Shown here in pieces: positions 12,920 through 25,840 of a stretch of DNA of 38,550 nucleotides. The stretch lies in IMG/VR virus record IMGVR_UViG_3300029612_000021. One strand, 5' to 3'. Below the pieces are notes generated by a model that was not told the DNA's origin, did not search any database, and worked only from the letters and a program-made list of their open reading frames with translations. The stretch's first letter is position 1, and every line of letters starts with the position of its first letter. The DNA is from a virus. Made by a program: the position numbers and the translations under genes.

Positions 12920-13955
12920 CGTCCGCTTCCGCGTCGACGTGCTCAGAAACGGCGCACCCATCACCCACCTCCAATGGGACACCGGCAGCCCTCCGCAGAT
13001 CATCGCCAGCCGCGACGCGACGATCCACACCAGCATCAAGGGCACCTTCCTCGTCAACGACGCGGTCGACTACCTCTCCGACGAGCTCCAGCCTGTCATG
13101 ACCATCGACGGGCAGGAGACGCCCCTCGGTATCTATCAGGCCGCGACCCCGAGCATCAAGGGCGCGGCCGGTCAGAAGCGCGTCGAGGTCGAGGCCTACG
13201 ACCGCTGCTGGCGCGTCTACAGCAACCGCACCGAGACCATCCTGCACCTGTCCGCCGGTGCGTCCTATCTCACCGAGATCCGCAAGCTGCTCACCGCCTG
13301 CGGCGTCGCGCTCGTCATTGCGACGCCGTCGGACGCGACGCTGCAGACCGACCGCGAGGACTGGGATGTCGGCACAAGCTACCTGACCATCGTCAACGAC
13401 CTGCTGGCCGAGATCAACTACAACAGCCTCTGGTTCGACGCCTCCGGCGTCGCCCGTCTCGAGCCCTATCAGGAGCCGAGCGCGCAGAACATCGACTGGT
13501 CCTACGGAACGACGGACCTCTTCCTTCCAGACCGGCATCCGGGGCCGAACTTCTCAGATGAGGAAGACATCTTCAACGCGCCGAACGTCTTCATCTGCGT
13601 CTGCTCCAACCCGGATCTGGAGCAGCCCATGGTCGCAACGGCCGTCAACGACAATCCGCAGTCGCGCAAGTCCACCTTCCGGCGGAACATGCGCATCGCC
13701 TCGCTCATCAAGGTCGACAACATCGCCTCGCAGGAGGAGCTGCAGGCCTACGCCGACCGCATGCGCAACGAGTCGCTCCTGTCCGCCCGGGCCATCACGT
13801 TTTATACCCTCAATGACCCCGGCCACGGCATCGGTGACGTCCTCGCGCTCACGCATGACGACATCGGCGGCATTTACCTCGAAACCGGCTGGCAGATGCA
13901 GCTGTCAGCCGGAAGTCTCATGACACACTCTGCAAAAAGGACGGTGATTGCATAA
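12909..13955 (+). CDS. tail-associated (Tal-like) baseplate hub protein
   Basis: 348 aa with TTG start after GAGGAGG. It occupies the second gene position after the tape measure. Confidence 0.55.
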   Translation: MTRDVRFRVDVLRNGAPITHLQWDTGSPPQIIASRDATIHTSIKGTFLVNDAVDYLSDELQPVMTIDGQETPLGIYQAATPSIKGAAGQKRVEVEAYDRCWRVYSNRTETILHLSAGASYLTEIRKLLTACGVALVIATPSDATLQTDREDWDVGTSYLTIVNDLLAEINYNSLWFDASGVARLEPYQEPSAQNIDWSYGTTDLFLPDRHPGPNFSDEEDIFNAPNVFICVCSNPDLEQPMVATAVNDNPQSRKSTFRRNMRIASLIKVDNIASQEELQAYADRMRNESLLSARAITFYTLNDPGHGIGDVLALTHDDIGGIYLETGWQMQLSAGSLMTHSAKRTVIA

Positions 13956-14953
13956 TGGAAGGCGTAGACAGCCTGTACACCGAAGAACCAGAAGAGCAGC
14001 AGACCGAAGAACAGCAGCAGCCGTTCCAGCTGGCCGTCATTGCGACGGTCGAGGAAGACGGCCTGACCCTCACGCCTGACGGCGCGGAGGAGCCGACCGA
14101 GAAGCATTTTAAATGCAACACCGGCATCAACTTCGCCGCCGGACAGCGCGTGGCCGTCCTCGAAATGTCCGGCAGCAAGGTCGTCATGTTCCCGATCGGC
14201 AACCCCGGCGCGGACGCGCCGGCGAAGATCCCGCCCGGCGGCACGGCCGGGCAGGTGCTCCAAAAATCGTCCGACAATGACTACGCGCTCACCTGGGGCA
14301 GCATCACCGGCCTTCTGCCGACCGGAGGAACGAGCGGACAGATCCTCAAAAAGTCAGGCAACGCCGACTACGCCGTCGAATGGGGCGACATCAACGGTGC
14401 TCTGCCTTCCGGCGGAACGACGGGCCAGGTGCTCAAAAAATCCAGCGCCACCGACTACGCCGTCACCTGGGGCAGCCCCGACGGTATCCTGCCGACCGGC
14501 GGCACCGATGGTCAGGTCCTGCTCAAAAACGGCGCGAGCAACTACGCCGCCAAGTGGGGCAGCATCACCGGCGCGCTCCCGACCGGCGGAACATCCGGTC
14601 AGGTGCTGAAAAAATCCAGCAACACCAACTACGCTTGCACGTGGGGCGACGTCGCCGGAACGCTTCCGAGCGGCGGAACCGACGGCCAGGTGCTCCTGAA
14701 AAACGGATCGACGGCCTACGCCGCGAAGTGGGGCACGGTATCCGCCGCAGGACTCAAGAGCGGATACAATTCGCTGGAGCTGAAAACAAAAACCCTGACG
14801 CCGTCCTCGAGCGGCTTTGAGATAGGGACATCGAGCTATCCCGTGACAGTCAGGGGAGACGAAATCGTGCTGTATTACAGTTCATACCGCTACTGCACCC
14901 TTGCGTGCAACTCATCCGGGAAGCTGACCGTCAACGGCACAGCCATCAACTAA
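13955..14953 (+). CDS. tail fibre / spike protein with six 29-aa tandem repeats
   Basis: 332 aa. Six repeats of PxGGTxGQVLxKxxxxxYAxxWGxxxGxL. TAATG coupling to the upstream gene. Confidence 0.6.
   Translation: MEGVDSLYTEEPEEQQTEEQQQPFQLAVIATVEEDGLTLTPDGAEEPTEKHFKCNTGINFAAGQRVAVLEMSGSKVVMFPIGNPGADAPAKIPPGGTAGQVLQKSSDNDYALTWGSITGLLPTGGTSGQILKKSGNADYAVEWGDINGALPSGGTTGQVLKKSSATDYAVTWGSPDGILPTGGTDGQVLLKNGASNYAAKWGSITGALPTGGTSGQVLKKSSNTNYACTWGDVAGTLPSGGTDGQVLLKNGSTAYAAKWGTVSAAGLKSGYNSLELKTKTLTPSSSGFEIGTSSYPVTVRGDEIVLYYSSYRYCTLACNSSGKLTVNGTAIN
14231..14752 (+). repeat. 6 x 87-bp in-frame tandem repeat inside the fibre gene
   Basis: Corresponds to aa 93-266 of the 13955 ORF. The units are clearly alignable by eye. 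Confidence 0.85.
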
Positions 14954-19868: not shown

Positions 19869-20177
19869 ATGGACTACACGCAAATCATCTCGGCAGTGAT
19901 CGCGCTCATCAGCGCGCTCGTCTCGGCATTTCTGATCCCGTGGATCAAGACGAAGATCGACGCGGATAAGCTGCAAACGCTCCGCACTTACGTTGAGATC
20001 GGCGTAAAGGCGGCGGAGCAGCTGTACACCGCGACGGACGGCGCGGCGAAAAAGGAGTATGTTGTGAACTTCCTCGCCGAGAAGGGCATTAAATTTGATG
20101 TGGAAACAATCGATAAGCTGATCGAGGCCGCCGTGCTGCAGCTGCACCACGAGTTGTACGGGAGTGAGCGGGCATGA
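19869..20177 (+). CDS. holin, LL-H-like
   Basis: 102 aa with an N-terminal TM, then ...VKAAEQL...IDKLIEAAVLQL as in LL-H-type holins (from memory). It lies directly upstream of the endolysin with ATGA coupling. Confidence 0.8.
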   Translation: MDYTQIISAVIALISALVSAFLIPWIKTKIDADKLQTLRTYVEIGVKAAEQLYTATDGAAKKEYVVNFLAEKGIKFDVETIDKLIEAAVLQLHHELYGSERA

Positions 20178-20884
20178 GCATCAAAATTGGGCAGGCCAGC
20201 CTCGGCGAAACCGGAGGACGCAACCAGCAGCCCGGCAACCAGACCGGGCGGGAGCTGAATATATCCAACTGGTACAATGGCCGCTGGCTCGGCGTCCTGC
20301 GCTACAAGAGCCGCAAAAAGGCCGAGCGGGCCGCGCAGACGTGCGAGGCAGCGATTAAAAACCGGAATATCGGTTACGACATGAGCGACCGGAACACGGC
20401 GTATGAGGCCGCCAGAGCCGTCGGATGGGACGTGAGCAAGATCACAAAGCCCGTGGAGACGGACTGCTCCGGCCTCATGACGCTCTGCGCCGTGGCCGCA
20501 GGCTGCGAGGCCGTCGCCGCGCTCTACAAAAAGCAGGGGAATTCCTGCACCACCTACTGTATGCTGGACGATTGGCCCGCAACGGGCGATTTTAAATTGT
20601 TGATTGGTAGCAAATATCTGAAGACGGACGAAAATCTCCTGCGCGGGGACGTGCTGGTAAGCGAGGGCCATACCGTGATGGCCCTCGAAGATGGAAAAAA
20701 TGCAGAGGAGGAGACTGAGATGGTAGAAAAGAGCAAGATCATCGTGGACGGTAAGGAAGTCGCCGTTGAACGCATCCTGAAGAACGGCACGAACTACGTC
20801 AAAGTGCGAGATATCGCCGCTGCGCTGGATCTCGAAGTGAGCAACAAGGGAAATATCGCTGTGCTGAAGCACAAGGAAAAGTAA
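20174..20884 (+). CDS. endolysin: Cys/His peptidoglycan hydrolase (Amidase_5 / NlpC-P60-like) with C-terminal wall-binding-type domain
   Basis: GYDMSDR...ETDCSGL...GDVLVSEGHTVM is a catalytic-type pattern. The C-terminal VDGKEVAVERILKNGTNYVKVRDIAAAL resembles copper-amine-oxidase-N-like repeats. Confidence 0.8.
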   Translation: MSIKIGQASLGETGGRNQQPGNQTGRELNISNWYNGRWLGVLRYKSRKKAERAAQTCEAAIKNRNIGYDMSDRNTAYEAARAVGWDVSKITKPVETDCSGLMTLCAVAAGCEAVAALYKKQGNSCTTYCMLDDWPATGDFKLLIGSKYLKTDENLLRGDVLVSEGHTVMALEDGKNAEEETEMVEKSKIIVDGKEVAVERILKNGTNYVKVRDIAAALDLEVSNKGNIAVLKHKEK

Positions 20885-21003
20885 GCCCTGCCCGGCGGCG
20901 GGCCGAAGGGAGTGACGAAAGCATAACTGCGCGGCTGGCTCTGCCGAAGGAGCTGGAACACCTCACGCGCAGCGACTGGGAGCGCGTCACAGACGAGGGA
21001 CTT

Positions 21004-21177
21004 TTGGACGTGATCGATCAGCAGATCGTGAAGCTTTATATTGTGCGCAGGCTCCCGCAGATGGACGCAGCCGGTGAAATCGGTATCGACCGCAAGACCA
21101 TCTCCCGCCGCCTGCCGCACATCTACAATATCGCCCGCCGTCTGGTAGGGAAAACGGACAAAGAGAAAGCGCCATGA
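21004..21177 (+). CDS. possible small HTH (sigma-70 region-4-like) protein
   Basis: 57 aa from the TTG at 21004, which follows GAGGG. Sequence LDVIDQQIVKLYIVRRLPQMDAAGEIGIDRKTISRRL.... The frame is open further upstream but has no canonical start there. Confidence 0.35.
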   Translation: MDVIDQQIVKLYIVRRLPQMDAAGEIGIDRKTISRRLPHIYNIARRLVGKTDKEKAP

Positions 21178-21197
21178 GCAACGGCTCATGGCGCTTT
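21166..21197. terminator. bidirectional rho-independent terminator between convergent genes
   Basis: Perfect 14-bp stem AAAGCGCCATGAGC / GCTCATGGCGCTTT with a 4-nt loop and T-rich flanks. Confidence 0.75.
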
Positions 21198-21199
21198 TT

Positions 21200-21709
21200 C
21201 TATGTTCCGGGATTGGCTTTCGGACGATAGTTCGGGTTATACGATCTGCATGCGCGCTCCAGCGCGCGGAAGTCGCAGGAGATCTTACAGATGAAGCTGC
21301 TCTTTCCATTGACGACATCGTAGTATGTACGATTGGCATGATCCAGAATGGCAAGCTTCTGACGGTTGCAATGCTCGATCTGGTTCAGGAGCAGGTTGCG
21401 ATACTTCACATCCGGCTCTGCGGAAATGTCGTATTCAAGGATCGCAGAATCAGGGACAGGGACCATGTTGTTGAAGCCGAGAAGACCGAGGCGGCCACCG
21501 TCAAGCTTCAGAATGTGCTTGCCGGGCTTTAGATTGGCATGGTTTGGCTTCGGGGATTCCATGGGGACGAAGTAACGGAAGCTCCCGACAGTGAGAACAA
21601 CGCCGACATAGGGGCGACGCTGGCCCTTGTTGAACGGGACACGGAAGTCACGGGAATGGAGGAAGGAAATATAGCGCTCACTGATGTGGCAGATAAAAAG
21701 ATTCTCCAA
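21200..21709 (-). CDS. type III toxin-antitoxin toxin, ToxN/AbiQ-family endoribonuclease
   Basis: 169 aa with TTG start after AAAGG. It aligns along its length with remembered ToxN/AbiQ (YISFL..D.RVP, VGVVL...YFVPMESPK, LGLLGFNNMVPV, YRNLL, CDFRALE). A tandem RNA-type repeat array lies upstream. Confidence 0.85.
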   Translation of the reverse strand: MENLFICHISERYISFLHSRDFRVPFNKGQRRPYVGVVLTVGSFRYFVPMESPKPNHANLKPGKHILKLDGGRLGLLGFNNMVPVPDSAILEYDISAEPDVKYRNLLLNQIEHCNRQKLAILDHANRTYYDVVNGKSSFICKISCDFRALERACRSYNPNYRPKANPGT

Positions 21710-21726
21710 GATTCGACCTTTCCGGG

Positions 21727-21760
21727 AAAGAAAAAGCGAGACTGCAGAAGTCTCGCTTTT
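21727..21760 (-). terminator. intrinsic terminator between repeat array and toxin gene
   Basis: In minus sense: AAAAGCGAGAC-TTCTGCA-GTCTCGCTTTTTCTTT. Confidence 0.7.
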
Positions 21761-21782
21761 AGTTGCCCATGATTTTTTAAGC

Positions 21783-21893
21783 CCCTACTTAACGGCAAGG
21801 GATTTCCGCTTTTTTGGCTCCCTACTTGACGGCAAGGGATTTCCGCTTTTTTAGCTCCCTATTTAACGGCAAGGGATCTCCGCTTTCATGGGC
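21783..21893 (-). ncRNA. ToxI/antiQ-like antitoxin RNA repeat array (3 x 37 nt plus a partial unit toward the toxin)
   Basis: Units are 21783-21819, 21820-21856 and 21857-21893. The first two are 35/37 identical. RNA-sense unit: AGCYAAAAAAGCGGAAATCCCTTGCCGTYAAGTAGGG. Confidence 0.75.
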
Positions 21894-22000
21894 AGATGAT
21901 GAACGGCGACGTTCAATCTCTGTAGATTCCTGAAATGGTTGTGCCGCGGATCGTGCGGTGCCAGATTTCAGGATTCTTTCGCGGATCTCTCCGCACCCCT

Positions 22001-22030
22001 AGTATAAACTCAAAAATGTGTAGAAGTCAA
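22001..22030 (-). promoter_or_regulatory. sigma-70-type promoter for the repeat array / toxin operon
   Basis: Minus strand reads TTGACT, 18 nt, TATACT, about 100 nt upstream of the first repeat. Confidence 0.45.
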
Positions 22031-22063
22031 GAGGAGTACTGGGAAAATTTTTAAGAGGAAAGC

Positions 22064-22103
22064 ATGTCCCACAAATGGTACACAGATGTCCCGGAAATGT
22101 CCC
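22064..22103 (+). promoter_or_regulatory. three direct ATGTCCC repeats (possible regulator-binding iterons)
   Basis: Copies lie at 22064-22070, 22086-22092 and 22097-22103. Spacings are 22 and 11 nt. They are upstream of the 22177 gene. Confidence 0.35.
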
Positions 22104-22176
22104 CCATAAAAACCGGAGAAGCGGCAGAATGAGAGTAGGAGCTGGCCAGCTTACTACTTTTACCGGAGGATTTTTT

Positions 22177-22812
22177 ATGGAATACGCAAGCAAGGGACTC
22201 GCGGGGACTGCGCTGGGCTTCGGCATCGGCGGCGCCGCGCTGGGTCTGGCAAACGGCGGCCTTGGCAATCTGCTGGGAGGCCTCAACCAGAACAAGAGAT
22301 CGGAAGCCGCTGATGTTGCTGCGGCAGTCACACCTGCCATGACGGTCGCCGCCATGCTCGCAGCGCGGCAGCAGGAGCCGACGTGCAGCGAAAACATGCC
22401 CGTCTCGCGCTACGAGCTGGAGCGTGAGCAGAAGCTGGCCGCGAAGGACAGCGAGATCGCGCTGCTCAAGGCCAACACGTACAACGATGGCAAGATGCTG
22501 GAGGTGTACGGTTATATCGACGGGCAGCTCAAGGACATCCGTGAGGCGCTGTGCAAGCAGGCCGTCCACAACCAGCGCACCGAGGACAGCTTCACGCTGG
22601 TCAAGCAGGACGTCGAGTCTGTCCGCAAGGAAGCCCTTGGCGCGGTCAAGATGGAGGCCGAGCGCCGCTGCTGCGGTGATAACGCCCTGAAGACCTATGT
22701 CAACGCAACCTTTTATCCCAAGCAGGTCGCAGATGTCACCACCGGCACCGCGACCACGGCGCAGACGCTCTACGATCCGCTCCCGAAGTGCTGCGGCTGC
22801 TGCAACAACTAA
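22177..22812 (+). CDS. hypothetical protein: Gly-zipper N-terminus, coiled coil, Cys-cluster C-terminus
   Basis: 211 aa from the ATG at 22177, which follows GGAGGA. Sequence GLAGTALGFGIGGAALGLANGGLGNLLGGL ... RRCCG ... PKCCGCCNN. Confidence 0.55.
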   Translation: MEYASKGLAGTALGFGIGGAALGLANGGLGNLLGGLNQNKRSEAADVAAAVTPAMTVAAMLAARQQEPTCSENMPVSRYELEREQKLAAKDSEIALLKANTYNDGKMLEVYGYIDGQLKDIREALCKQAVHNQRTEDSFTLVKQDVESVRKEALGAVKMEAERRCCGDNALKTYVNATFYPKQVADVTTGTATTAQTLYDPLPKCCGCCNN

Positions 22813-22862: not shown

Positions 22863-23201
22863 ATGACAGTGACGATCGATCAGGCCATGCGCGGCGCAAT
22901 GCGCTACGCTGATAACGAGGTCATACCGCACCTGCCGGGCGGCAAGGGCATCGCCGCTGGGATCATGCTGGCGCTCATCATGGAGGGCAGCCGCGAAAAG
23001 ATCCTTGCGCTGCGTGAGAATCCCGCGGTCAAGATGATGCAGATCTTTGACGACGCCGGAAACATCGACCTCGACAAGCTCTACAACGCGGCCCGGCCGC
23101 GCTTTGAAAACAAGCTGACCATATCCGTCCCGCTGCTGGGCGATATGCGTTTTGACCAGAACGACGTCGATAAACTCTACCGGTATATCCAGGAGGCATG
23201 A
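22863..23201 (+). CDS. hypothetical protein
   Basis: 112 aa with an AAAGGAGGGAA SD. Confidence 0.5.
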   Translation: MTVTIDQAMRGAMRYADNEVIPHLPGGKGIAAGIMLALIMEGSREKILALRENPAVKMMQIFDDAGNIDLDKLYNAARPRFENKLTISVPLLGDMRFDQNDVDKLYRYIQEA

Positions 23202-23768: not shown

Positions 23769-25358
23769 TCAATCAGCGAGGGGATAGAGGGTGACGTGCA
23801 TGTCGCTGCCGGATTTGGTGTAGGATTTGGTCTGTTTATGGTAGAGGACCTTCTGCAGGACAGTTTTCAGGAGGGCGTTTTTCTCCTGCGGGGATGCGGC
23901 GAGCGGGTAGGTCTCGAGGACGCGGCGGACAGCGGGGGCCAGACGGGCGCGGGCCTGTCTGGCACGGGCCAGCTCATGGATCGTGGTCTGGCTAGCCTCG
24001 ATGCGGTCGACGATGACCTGCTTGTCAGCGGCGAGCGCCTGCGAGCGCTGCAGGAAGATCTCCGGCGTATAGACACCGGTCTCGACCAGCTCATACGCGC
24101 GGGCCTCCTGCGCCTCCAGCTTGGCAAGCTGCTTGCGGTCGGCGGCGATCGAGGACTCGAGCGCGGCATGCATGGGAGCGTCATCTGGTGCAGCGGCCTC
24201 ACCGAGCTCCAGCTCGCGCAGCCAGCCACGCAGAGCATCCAGCACGGCGTCCGCCACATCATCATACCACGCGCTGACGGTCGTGCAGCCGTAGGAGGGA
24301 CAAAGAAGCGTATCGCGGCGGTTGCCGGACGACGGACGGCGAACCATCACGCGGCCGCACTGGTCGCAGCGGACGAGCCCGGCGAGGCTCGTCACGGTCC
24401 CCCATGCGCCCTTGCCGCGCGGGCTGGCGCTGGAATAGCTCAGAGCGACGGCTTTGTCGTACTGCTCCTGCGAGATCAGGCCGTCGTGCAGCCCTTTATA
24501 AAGCTTCAGATCCTCCTGGCGGGTGCGCGGGCGGCTGACGACGACAGCGCCGTCGACAATGCGCTTCGTCTCTGGCCGCCCGCCGGACTTGATCCAACCA
24601 GCATTTGCCGGATTGCGCAGGATATCCAGCACAGAGTCCGCGCGCCAAAGGCTGCCGGAGTTGGTCAGGACGCCGAGGCTGTTCAGCCGCGTGGAGATCG
24701 CCTTTGCGCCGATGCGCGCGCAGCCCTCGCCGGTGTACCAGTTGTAGATCTGCCGCAGGACGGGGGCCTGCTCCGGATGCGGGACGAGCTTGTAGCCCTT
24801 GTCGTTCGGCAGCTTCTCACGCGACCAGCCGAAGGGCGTCTTGCCGGAGATCCATTTGCCCTCGCGCAAGGACGCCTCCTTGCCGCGGGACAGGCGGCGC
24901 TTGATGGTGTTGTACTCGCGCCGGGACATAAAGAGGCCGAACTCAAAGTATTCCTCGTCCATCTCGTTGTTCGGGTCGTAGGTCTTGTTCGGCGTGATGA
25001 TCTTCGTGTTGGAATACTTGAAGGTCTGGGCAATAATGCCCTGGTCGATGGTGTCACCGCGCGCCAGACGCTCGACCTCCATGACGATGACGCCCGCATA
25101 GTTCCCGGTCTCGACGAGCTGCAGGACCTTCTGCACCTCCGGCCGGACGGCGATGGAGTCGCCGGTCACGACCTCCTCGAAGATCTCCACGACGTTCAGC
25201 CCGCGGCTTTCGGACAGCGACAAAAGAGCGGCCCGGTGCCGTTTGAGCGTGTCGGTCTGGCCGAGAGCTTCGGCCTCCATGTCCTTCCGGGACTTGCGCA
25301 GGTAAATGATGTACTGCGCGAGCGGGTCGGCGATTCTCCAGGTAGATGTAAATTTCAT
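23769..25358 (-). CDS. int: large serine recombinase (integrase)
   Basis: 529 aa from the ATG at 25358. N-terminal resolvase-type IIYLRKSRKD...VERLARGD, a recombinase and zinc-ribbon middle (CDQCG...CPSYGC) and a coiled-coil C-terminus. Confidence 0.9.
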   Translation of the reverse strand: MKFTSTWRIADPLAQYIIYLRKSRKDMEAEALGQTDTLKRHRAALLSLSESRGLNVVEIFEEVVTGDSIAVRPEVQKVLQLVETGNYAGVIVMEVERLARGDTIDQGIIAQTFKYSNTKIITPNKTYDPNNEMDEEYFEFGLFMSRREYNTIKRRLSRGKEASLREGKWISGKTPFGWSREKLPNDKGYKLVPHPEQAPVLRQIYNWYTGEGCARIGAKAISTRLNSLGVLTNSGSLWRADSVLDILRNPANAGWIKSGGRPETKRIVDGAVVVSRPRTRQEDLKLYKGLHDGLISQEQYDKAVALSYSSASPRGKGAWGTVTSLAGLVRCDQCGRVMVRRPSSGNRRDTLLCPSYGCTTVSAWYDDVADAVLDALRGWLRELELGEAAAPDDAPMHAALESSIAADRKQLAKLEAQEARAYELVETGVYTPEIFLQRSQALAADKQVIVDRIEASQTTIHELARARQARARLAPAVRRVLETYPLAASPQEKNALLKTVLQKVLYHKQTKSYTKSGSDMHVTLYPLAD

Positions 25359-25429
25359 AAGCAGATTCTCACCACAAGGGCAAAAGGTTATACGGATACC
25401 GCTCCGGCGCTGGGCCGGGGCGGTTTTAT

Positions 25430-25840
25430 TTATGCGCGGATCCAGCCGATCGATGGGCTGAGCACGTCGGCCAAAAGCGCAAGGACACACAGCAAAAGAA
25501 TACCCAAGAGGATGAGCGTCACAAGCCGGTGCATGCGCAGGGATTTCTGCTGCTGGGCAAGCTGCGCGCGAAGGGCCGCGTTCTCGGCGCGGAGTTTTTC
25601 GGCATCGGAAGACTCGGCAGGCTCATCATGCGGAATGCCGAAATACTCATCCATAGAAACGCCCATCTCCCGGCAGATCGGGCCGACCGTGTAAACGGAC
25701 GGATTTTTGATGTCGCCGCGAAAGAACTGGGAGACGGTGCCGACGGAAAGGTCGGTGTTTTCGGCAACGTCCTGATTTGTTTTGTGCGGAGTGACCGTCT
25801 GCTTCTGCTCACGGCACAAATCAGATAATTTTTCCTTCAA
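25430..25840 (-). CDS. membrane-anchored XRE-family HTH protein
   Basis: 136 aa with TTG start. HTH NQDVAENTDLSVGTVSQFFRG, a coiled coil, and a C-terminal TM LVTLILLGILLLCVLALLA. Confidence 0.6.
   Translation of the reverse strand: MKEKLSDLCREQKQTVTPHKTNQDVAENTDLSVGTVSQFFRGDIKNPSVYTVGPICREMGVSMDEYFGIPHDEPAESSDAEKLRAENAALRAQLAQQQKSLRMHRLVTLILLGILLLCVLALLADVLSPSIGWIRA

Follow-up and report, generated by a model that had tools for sequence, protein, structure and literature searches.

A probable phage-carried ToxIN toxin-antitoxin cassette with a divergent ToxI repeat array in a temperate phage of gut Oscillospiraceae/Clostridiales

Type III toxin-antitoxin (TA) systems are modules for abortive infection and stabilisation and are well understood. 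ToxIN, which pairs the RNA antitoxin ToxI with the endoribonuclease ToxN, has been known since 2009. The array of Pectobacterium atrosepticum pECA1039 consists of 5.5 repeats of 36 nucleotides (nt), and AbiQ/antiQ of Lactococcus lactis, which acts by abortive infection, has about 2.8 RNA repeats. The toxIN arrays of Escherichia coli have 3–5.6 repeats (PMC8860590). More than 50 toxIN loci were catalogued in 2012, many of them in gut Firmicutes and one on the Clostridium botulinum phage D-1873 (PMC3401426). According to a survey from 2025, the toxIN of this phage is the only one reported in a phage (PMC12283969). Here we describe a locus on the minus strand of a 38,550-nt stretch of viral DNA (IMG/VR record IMGVR_UViG_3300029612_000021; the whole stretch is referred to as the window). 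The window represents a temperate phage whose hosts are gut Oscillospiraceae/Clostridiales, and the locus is very probably a complete phage-carried ToxIN type III TA cassette.

The 169-residue open reading frame (ORF) that an initial annotation had placed at 21709–21200 is present with a TTG start, and its proposed membership in the ToxN/AbiQ family is borne out by hidden Markov model (HMM) searches. It matches the Pfam family PF13958 (ToxN_toxin) over positions 3–159 of 159 (E 1.2e-44, 152.7 bits with a cut-off of 25) and the PADLOC AbiQ model (E 4.7e-40). Neither a family beyond PF13958 in the Pfam scan of the product nor any match in the NCBIfam scan was found. The best match of a phmmer search against the PDB is ToxN of Bacillus thuringiensis (4ATO, 9e-23); E. 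coli ToxN, AbiQ (3e-11) and P. atrosepticum ToxN (~1e-11) are also matched. The fold agrees with this assignment. An AlphaFold2 model based on 24 homologues has a mean predicted local distance difference test score of 92.1 and a predicted template modelling (TM) score of 0.86, and the top four Foldseek matches are 4ATO, 2XD0, 7D8O and 4GLK (TM 0.77–0.80, probability 1.00). Homologues on RefSeq plasmids are labelled 'ToxN/AbiQ family toxin'. A CptN or TenpN identity of the toxin was considered and rejected, with CptN (4RMO; TM 0.56, E 7e-3) scoring far under the ToxN matches.

ToxIN of B. thuringiensis pAW63 is the closest system of solved structure (TM 0.80). Its array has 3.1 repeats of 34 nt and that of the window 3.1 repeats of 37 nt, so that the window unit is 3 nt longer. 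The two units are collinear (AAAUUGGUGUAgCCUUACCGUAGUAGGcACuAAA vs AAAGCGGAAAUCCCUUGCCGUUAAGUAGGGAGCUAAA) with matching A-rich junctions, and the stems comprise 4 base pairs (bp) in the window unit and 3–4 bp in pAW63 ToxI. The toxins are 30% identical in the Foldseek alignment and 36% identical in tblastn. The pAW63 array starts ~8 nt after the −10 box without a leader, whereas the array of the window follows a structured leader of ~100 nt. Furthermore, B. thuringiensis ToxN has PLTSRN as its active-site motif and the window toxin has PMESPK, and the B. thuringiensis system resides on a plasmid whereas that of the window resides on a phage.

The ToxIN systems of P. atrosepticum pECA1039 (2XD0/2XDB/2XDD) and E. 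coli (7D8O) have the same fold (TM 0.78–0.79). They resemble the window in operon logic and in an H-type pseudoknot antitoxin with single-stranded tails, with toxins ~25% identical to that of the window. AbiQ (4GLK, TM 0.77) belongs to the same family and is farther from the window toxin than B. thuringiensis ToxN. Two phage-borne toxIN loci with the same order of elements were found in Clostridium phage D-1873 (a C. botulinum plasmid-prophage) and Clostridioides phage pCD1602_4. Their arrays have ~3.2 repeats of 37–39 nt, and the units of pCD1602_4 are matched (E 3e-4) by R1, a covariance model of the repeat described below. Their toxins are ~38% identical to that of the window and keep Thr/Ser in the active site (PMTSPK, PMSSPK). 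Both phages are large and plasmid-like, whereas the window is a 38-kb integrating siphovirus-type prophage. CptIN (Eubacterium rectale, 4RMO) and TenpIN share the type III TA logic with the window but differ in their toxin families.

The elements of the locus are the following, in the direction of transcription predicted for the minus strand:
22001–22030, minus strand: predicted sigma-70-like promoter TTGACT-18-TATACT (−35 box 22030–22025, −10 box 22006–22001; consensus scan).
21980–21995, minus strand: leader hairpin HP1, UGCGGA-GAGA-UCCGCG, at or beside the predicted 5' end of the transcript (folding).
21924–21977, minus strand: long imperfect leader hairpin with arms 21924–21936 and 21965–21977 (13-nt arms, 92% complementary).
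21893–21922, minus strand: leader hairpin HP2 (GAUUGAACG...CGUUCAUC), followed by a single-stranded tail (inverted repeat).
21886–21894, minus strand: 5' arm of the bracketing helix (UGCCCAUGA; 9-nt inverted repeat).
21850–21886, minus strand: ToxI unit 1 (AAAGCGGAGAUCCCUUGCCGUUAAAUAGGGAGCUAAA) with no A6 tract on its 5' side (covariance model, 40.8 bits, E 2e-6).
21813–21849, minus strand: ToxI unit 2 (covariance model, 41.3 bits).
21776–21812, minus strand: ToxI unit 3; the last A6 tract follows at 21778–21773 (covariance model, 40.4 bits).
21764–21772, minus strand: 3' arm of the bracketing helix (UCAUGGGCA; 9-nt inverted repeat).
21726–21760, minus strand: predicted intrinsic terminator in the gap between array and toxN, with a 12-bp stem, a 5-nt loop and a U-rich tail (inverted repeat).
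21717–21723, minus strand: ribosome-binding site (RBS) GGAAAGG, 7 nt 5' of the TTG start (sequence).
21200–21709, minus strand: toxN, ToxN/AbiQ-family endoribonuclease of 169 residues with a TTG start (HMM, PDB, fold).
21205–22061, minus strand: the whole toxIN cassette, an 857-bp insert (blastn against the empty-site phage L172).

Tandem Repeats Finder (TRF) places the array at 21774–21886 (period 37, 3.1 copies, 89% matches, score 184), and a repeat finder gives three copies with spacings of 37 and 37 nt. Both values agree with the ~31–46 nt and ~2–6 copies expected of such an antitoxin array. The three 37-nt repeats and the partial unit of the initial annotation thus lie within a few bases of where it had put them. 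In its register, the units 21820–21856 and 21783–21819 are identical at 35/37 positions. The promoter-proximal unit 21857–21893 departs from them mainly in its first 7 nt (GCCCAUG vs AGCYAAA), and the three full units are followed by the partial unit GCUUAAAAAA. The end of the array is 64 nt from the start codon of toxN on the same strand. Every unit is followed by an A6 tract (21852–21847, 21815–21810 and 21778–21773 on the minus strand); the minus strand of the entire window has just 12 A6 start positions. Model R1 was built from 36-nt units of 32 other loci, leaving out the window. Over the 38.5-kb window it gives exactly three matches (~41 bits each, E ~2e-6) and no orphan ToxI units outside the array. 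Since a model from other loci recognizes the three units, the array is more than a product of chance.

The A-rich junctions between the units are candidate processing sites of ToxN. Cleavage by B. thuringiensis ToxN occurs at AAA/AA, and the P. atrosepticum and E. coli enzymes likewise cut between adenines, at AA/AU and GAA/AU (the slash marks the cut; PMC8860590). Runs of A4 and A5 are absent from the toxN coding sequence, which is uninformative as just 1.3 and 0.3 are expected.

Each unit fits an H-type pseudoknot with stem 1 GCGG/CCGU, stem 2 CCCU/AGGG and loops of 4, 2 and 5 nt. The distinct units of 36 nt (32 units) and 37 nt (16 units) were analysed as separate length classes because in a joint MAFFT alignment the gap fell at the 3' end and stem 2 was out of alignment. 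Both stems are 92–93% paired. The pairing or the covariation of the pseudoknot was matched by 0 of 500 shuffles, and registers slid by 1–3 nt pair to 15–59%. Compensatory changes are present at three of the four pairs of stem 2 (C-G/U-A; A-U/G-C/C-G/U-A), with up to four pair types. Stem 1 has a single one, from C-G to A-U. Compensatory changes in two interleaved helices are a signature of a selected RNA structure rather than a selected DNA-binding site. In known ToxI the loop between 1a and 2a has 3–4 nt, the loop between 2a and 1b has 1–2 nt and the loop between 1b and 2b is longer ('Group I' pseudoknots, PMC3401426). The stems of 4 + 4 bp and the loops of 4, 2 and 5 nt of the window unit agree with this group. 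The small CTTG/CAAG hairpin that the initial annotation had proposed for the unit was rejected. It is weak, being only 72% paired, and a control slid by +3 scores higher.

Homologous arrays are present upstream of toxN homologues in more than 100 loci (TRF and model R1), and the homologous toxins form 763 protein clusters. The toxin search yielded 56 phage loci from IMG/VR and 80 loci from bacterial genomes; the latter are nearly all metagenome-assembled genomes of Oscillospiraceae, Clostridia or Eubacteriales. TRF detects arrays of 36/37 nt with ~2–3 copies, ending 40–70 nt before toxN, in 55 of the 56 phage loci. The sole exception, L043, has just 123 nt upstream of toxN. Most of the 80 genome loci have TRF arrays as well and model R1 adds arrays missed by TRF. 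The 51 distinct consensus units have the pattern AAAGCGGA..CC...GCCGU.AAGU.GG....AAA in common. A blastn search of the locus against GenBank phages gave no match, and just three phages of that collection have distant toxN homologues. With the toxin HMM matches, the solved relatives, the fold, these arrays and the covariation, the type III layout of ToxIN/AbiQ type proposed at the outset is well supported.

The TTGACT-18-TATACT promoter, also part of the initial proposal, was recovered by the consensus scan. It matches the consensus at 10/12 positions and is the sole sigma-70-like site in 20900–22400. In the great majority of 50+ distinct leaders of relatives, a TATAAT/TATACT box lies upstream of the first leader hairpin at the same distance as in the window. 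Consensus and conservation therefore predict a promoter at this position.

The leaders of the subfamily, taken from the −10 box to unit 1, have two hairpins and a pyrimidine-rich tail in 36/36 distinct sequences, with a mean z-score of −4.0 relative to shuffles. HP1 starts 2–7 nt after the −10 box in 33/36 leaders and has 28 distinct stem sequences, mostly with GNRA loops. Individual folds of relatives show the second hairpin at the place equivalent to HP2. MAFFT and RNAalifold were also applied to 30 leaders; the alignment was poor and no pairs were predicted. The leader structure derives from single-sequence folds and shuffles, which support it less strongly than a proper structural alignment would. 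The long imperfect hairpin of the initial annotation is found between HP1 and HP2. It is specific to the close clade of the window and absent from L034, L035, L037 and L048. The 8-mer CGCGGATC (GAUCCGCG in the RNA) occurs both in HP1 (21980–21987) and in the long hairpin (21945–21952), which suggests that the extra hairpin stems from a partial duplication of the leader.

No A-tract precedes unit 1, so the leader probably remains joined to this unit. The simplest reading of the hairpin at the 5' end is that it may act as an RNA stabiliser, judging from general knowledge of mRNA decay in Firmicutes. In relatives the leader tail is often CACCUCCUUU, as in the anti-Shine-Dalgarno end of 16S rRNA, and in the window it is CAUCUGCCC. 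The anti-Shine-Dalgarno-like tail is complementary to the toxN RBS or to the terminator in some loci (10 bp in L044); the motif is absent from the window.

The hairpin and U-tract between array and ORF, which had been annotated as a terminator, are present as an inverted repeat with the sequence AAAAGCGAGACU-UCUGC-AGUCUCGCUUUU followed by UCUUUC (tail given as UUUUUCUUUC). The 63-nt stretch 21782–21720 that includes them folds with −23.2 kcal/mol (z −4.2), and relatives have a hairpin and a T-run at the matching place. Downstream, the relatives have ATG where the window has TTG, and the RBS (GGAAAGG or GGAAGG) has equal spacing.

The inverted repeat that brackets the array (TGCCCATGA/TCATGGGCA) had been described with a length of 7 nt. 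It is present, but comprises 9 nt with 100% complementarity. In L034 and L048 the helix reads GCUCGUG/CACGGGC, with a compensatory change from A-U to G-C. As a family-wide feature the helix was rejected, with a mean length of 6.4 in cognate and 6.3 in non-cognate pairs of flanks. Since these lengths hardly differ, the bracketing helix is real only in the near clade of the window.

Taken together, these elements suggest the following mechanism. A constitutive promoter of sigma-70 type would give one minus-strand transcript with the structured leader, three ToxI units and the terminator. The terminator would halt most transcripts, leaving ToxI RNA in excess. Read-through transcripts would allow ToxN, a sequence-specific endoribonuclease, to be made, with translation starting at a TTG codon behind a weak RBS. 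ToxN would then cleave the precursor within the A6 tracts that separate the units. Each freed 37-nt unit would fold into the H-type pseudoknot and bind ToxN with its single-stranded A-rich tails, giving a closed and inactive RNA-protein complex. If the supply of ToxI failed, either because a superinfecting phage shuts off transcription or because the prophage is lost, ToxI would be turned over and free ToxN would degrade cellular and viral RNA.

Several points weigh against this reading. Transcription, the processing site, complex formation, toxicity and defence are steps that we infer. Unit 1 has no A-tract upstream, so perhaps only two units are fully excisable. The internal terminator at 21726–21760 is not listed by the consensus terminator scan. 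Stem 1 is almost invariant and its pairing is backed by one compensatory event. The active site also differs. In characterised ToxN it contains Thr52-Ser53-x-Lys55, and Arg is found at position 33 in E. coli clusters 4 and 5 (PMC8860590). The loop of the window toxin reads PMESPK (residues 49–54, toxN codons 47–52, window 21553–21570) vs PLTSPK in characterised ToxN. The residues aligned to Lys33, Thr52, Ser53 and Lys55 (P. atrosepticum/E. coli numbering) are Arg32, Glu51, Ser52 and Lys54. With Glu at the position of Thr52, the activity and specificity of characterised ToxN cannot simply be transferred. The Glu is kept in 133/139 related loci, and the most distant branch has PLEHPR (Glu-His-Pro-Arg).

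The Rfam model of ToxI, RF02519 (gathering threshold 50 bits), whose seed is B. thuringiensis ToxI, has no match at E<=10 in 21100–22200, and model R1 gives no match to B. thuringiensis ToxI at E<=1. Homology to characterised ToxI rests on collinearity, common topology and 25/37 identical positions. RF02519 is a narrow 34-nt profile, which scores 59, 47 and 40 bits on the three pAW63 units and also misses the arrays of pCD1602_4 and D-1873. The remaining Rfam matches of the locus at E<=10, such as ar9 and a mir-578 match on the downstream terminator, are noise. Model R1 matches arrays beside toxN genes that are just 38–40% identical, in addition to the array of pCD1602_4. The 25/37 identity was counted against the Rfam ToxI consensus, with which the window unit is collinear over the whole span between its first and its final AAA and has an equal position of stem 2; it was equalled by 4 of 2000 shuffles. 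The initial annotation had suggested a possibly new antitoxin family, one that protein-based annotation would overlook. The unit does escape existing RNA models. The register, the position of the helix and the identity to B. thuringiensis ToxI argue against a new antitoxin class. We conclude from the sequence comparison that the RNA is a divergent ToxI of known architecture, undetected by current RNA libraries, and does not form a new class.

The boundaries of the cassette are defined by sister phages with an empty site. The window segments 20887–21204 and 22062–22400 are contiguous in L172, save ~3 nt, and the 857 bp between them constitute the insert. The moron position between lysis genes and integrase that had been proposed is thus confirmed. 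The neighbouring features of the phage are:
21166–21197, both strands: bidirectional terminator hairpin with a 14-bp stem, phage backbone (terminator scan).
21004–21177, plus strand: ORF of 57 residues, convergent with toxN and weakly matching HTH_28 (sister phages).
19869–20177: holin.
20174–20884: endolysin-like protein.
23769–25490, minus strand: large serine recombinase (integrase).

The window also encodes a terminase and a major head protein. The toxIN cassette is located between the small helix-turn-helix (HTH) ORF at 21004–21177 and the ORF at 22177–22812, on the strand of the integrase and opposite to the late genes. The bidirectional terminator (−26.5 kcal/mol, z −6.8) is common to toxN and the convergent HTH ORF and is also present in the empty-site phage L172. 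The HTH ORF is kept in the examined sister phages with or without toxIN and is therefore assigned to the backbone and not to the TA module. The cassette therefore appears to bring its own promoter and internal terminator and to use the backbone terminator after toxN.

Eighty sister phages were gathered via the neighbouring gene at 22863–23201, 65 of which have enough upstream sequence to score the site. toxN is present in 10/65 and absent from 55/65. Array and toxN always occur together in the sister phages, where they come and go as a single cassette. The cargo site corresponds to window 21178–22176 and was measured in the 60 loci where both flanking genes could be located. It contains toxIN in 10 (966–1003 bp), is empty in 8 (148–178 bp) and harbours an unrelated cargo of ~860 bp, with an ORF of 128 residues and a ribbon-helix-helix (RHH)-like ORF of 81 residues, in 22. 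The other 20 loci comprise nine further cargo classes of 0.5–3.2 kb. The sister loci (L140–L219) have at least 10 alternative, unannotated cargos, nearly all lacking a recognisable domain. Pfam and PADLOC searches with ten ORFs from these cargos gave sub-threshold matches only, among them an RHH/BrnA-antitoxin-like ORF and an MqsA-like zinc-ribbon-HTH ORF. The alternative cargos could be undescribed TA or defence systems.

Further repeats were observed in and around the locus. An imperfect 7-nt direct repeat, ATGTTCC / ATGTCCC, is present at the cassette junctions (21198–21211 and 22055–22070). The empty site of L159 has a single copy and that of L172 has ATGCCCGCATGTCCC. The junction repeat may be a trace left by the recombination through which cargos are swapped. 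Outside the cassette, at 22064–22099, are the direct repeats ATGTCCCACAAATG / ATGTCCCGGAAATG (GGGACAT on the minus strand, 22-nt spacing). They belong to the phage backbone, as they are present in empty-site phages, and are possible operators for the promoter of the ORF at 22177. Other toxIN loci have unrelated direct repeats of 10–11 nt at the equivalent place (AACTGGCCGT x 3.7 in L049, TGCATTTGTG x 3.3 in L037). In the structural region, the ORF 13955–14953 contains a tandem array (window 14231–14735) with 5.3 copies of an 87-nt unit (29 codons), which was also scored as 2.1 copies of 174 nt. The array probably corresponds to a domain repeated within a tail or fibre protein.

The role for which the cassette is selected can be read in two ways, which do not exclude each other. 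Abortive-infection defence of the lysogen is considered the most likely role, with moderate confidence. Prophage addiction, i.e. stabilisation by post-segregational killing, would involve the same ToxIN system and is a tentative, rather less likely alternative. It draws on the other cargos of the site, which are TA-like (RHH/BrnA-antitoxin-like and MqsA-like, under the Pfam cut-offs), although variable prophage cargo sites are typical for defence genes. An integrated prophage is, moreover, lost rarely compared with a plasmid. The hosts are Clostridia, and pAW63 ToxIN of B. thuringiensis is reported to aid plasmid retention during sporulation (PMC4615649). However, experiments have shown anti-phage activity of ToxIN, AbiQ and TenpIN (PMC3401426, Table 3). 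This record of the family, together with the hypervariability of the cargo site, is why defence is favoured.

Two other explanations deny the TA function itself. The array might be a counter-defence decoy directed against a host ToxN, the adjacent toxN being incidental or decaying. Phage-encoded mimics of ToxI have reportedly been described (Blower et al. 2012, PLoS Genet.), and the pseudo-ToxI of Pectobacterium phage phiTE neutralises a host-encoded ToxN; the locus does reside in a phage. However, toxN is full length, intact and 96–100% conserved across more than 40 phage contigs, it is gained and lost together with the array, and the window has no orphan units. As toxN is intact and co-inherited, the decoy is excluded as highly improbable. 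Even more improbable is that the repeats are iterons or operators acting at the level of DNA, or a product of chance or slippage. Tandem direct repeats near promoters can be operators, and the GGGACAT repeats lie just upstream of the cassette, but these are the backbone repeats of the empty-site phages. The array itself corresponds to ToxI arrays in unit length, copy number, A-tract spacing and its position between promoter and terminator, and compensatory changes keep its two interleaved helices. This RNA covariation excludes a DNA-level role. A ToxIN cassette with an RNA antitoxin remains the preferred reading.

The phage-associated toxIN subfamily of Oscillospiraceae/Clostridia might also represent a mechanistic variant, distinguished by the leader, the Glu in the active site and the cargo reservoir, which we regard as possible but doubtful. 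If it did, the leader fused to unit 1 could set the stability of ToxI, terminator read-through or the translation of toxN, or could sense infection. The invariant Glu (PMESPK, or PLEHPR in the distant branch) would suggest an altered catalysis or specificity. The cargo site of a widespread gut phage family could then harbour a pool of defence or TA systems that have not yet been described. The two-hairpin leader, the Glu variant and the cargo hotspot are leads that go beyond the initial annotation.

The RNA half of type III TA systems is invisible to protein-based annotation, and here to Rfam as well. A covariance model and an alignment are now ready for annotating the ToxI variant of the window, and phages with empty and filled sites offer clean comparisons for experiments. 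The locus is a sound further example of a known defence/addiction system in an under-reported setting, and its biology is ordinary for the field. The toxIN subfamily is common in temperate phages and in genomes of gut Clostridia. In the phages related to the window it is a discrete cassette that is gained and lost at a hypervariable site, which points to a cargo hotspot.

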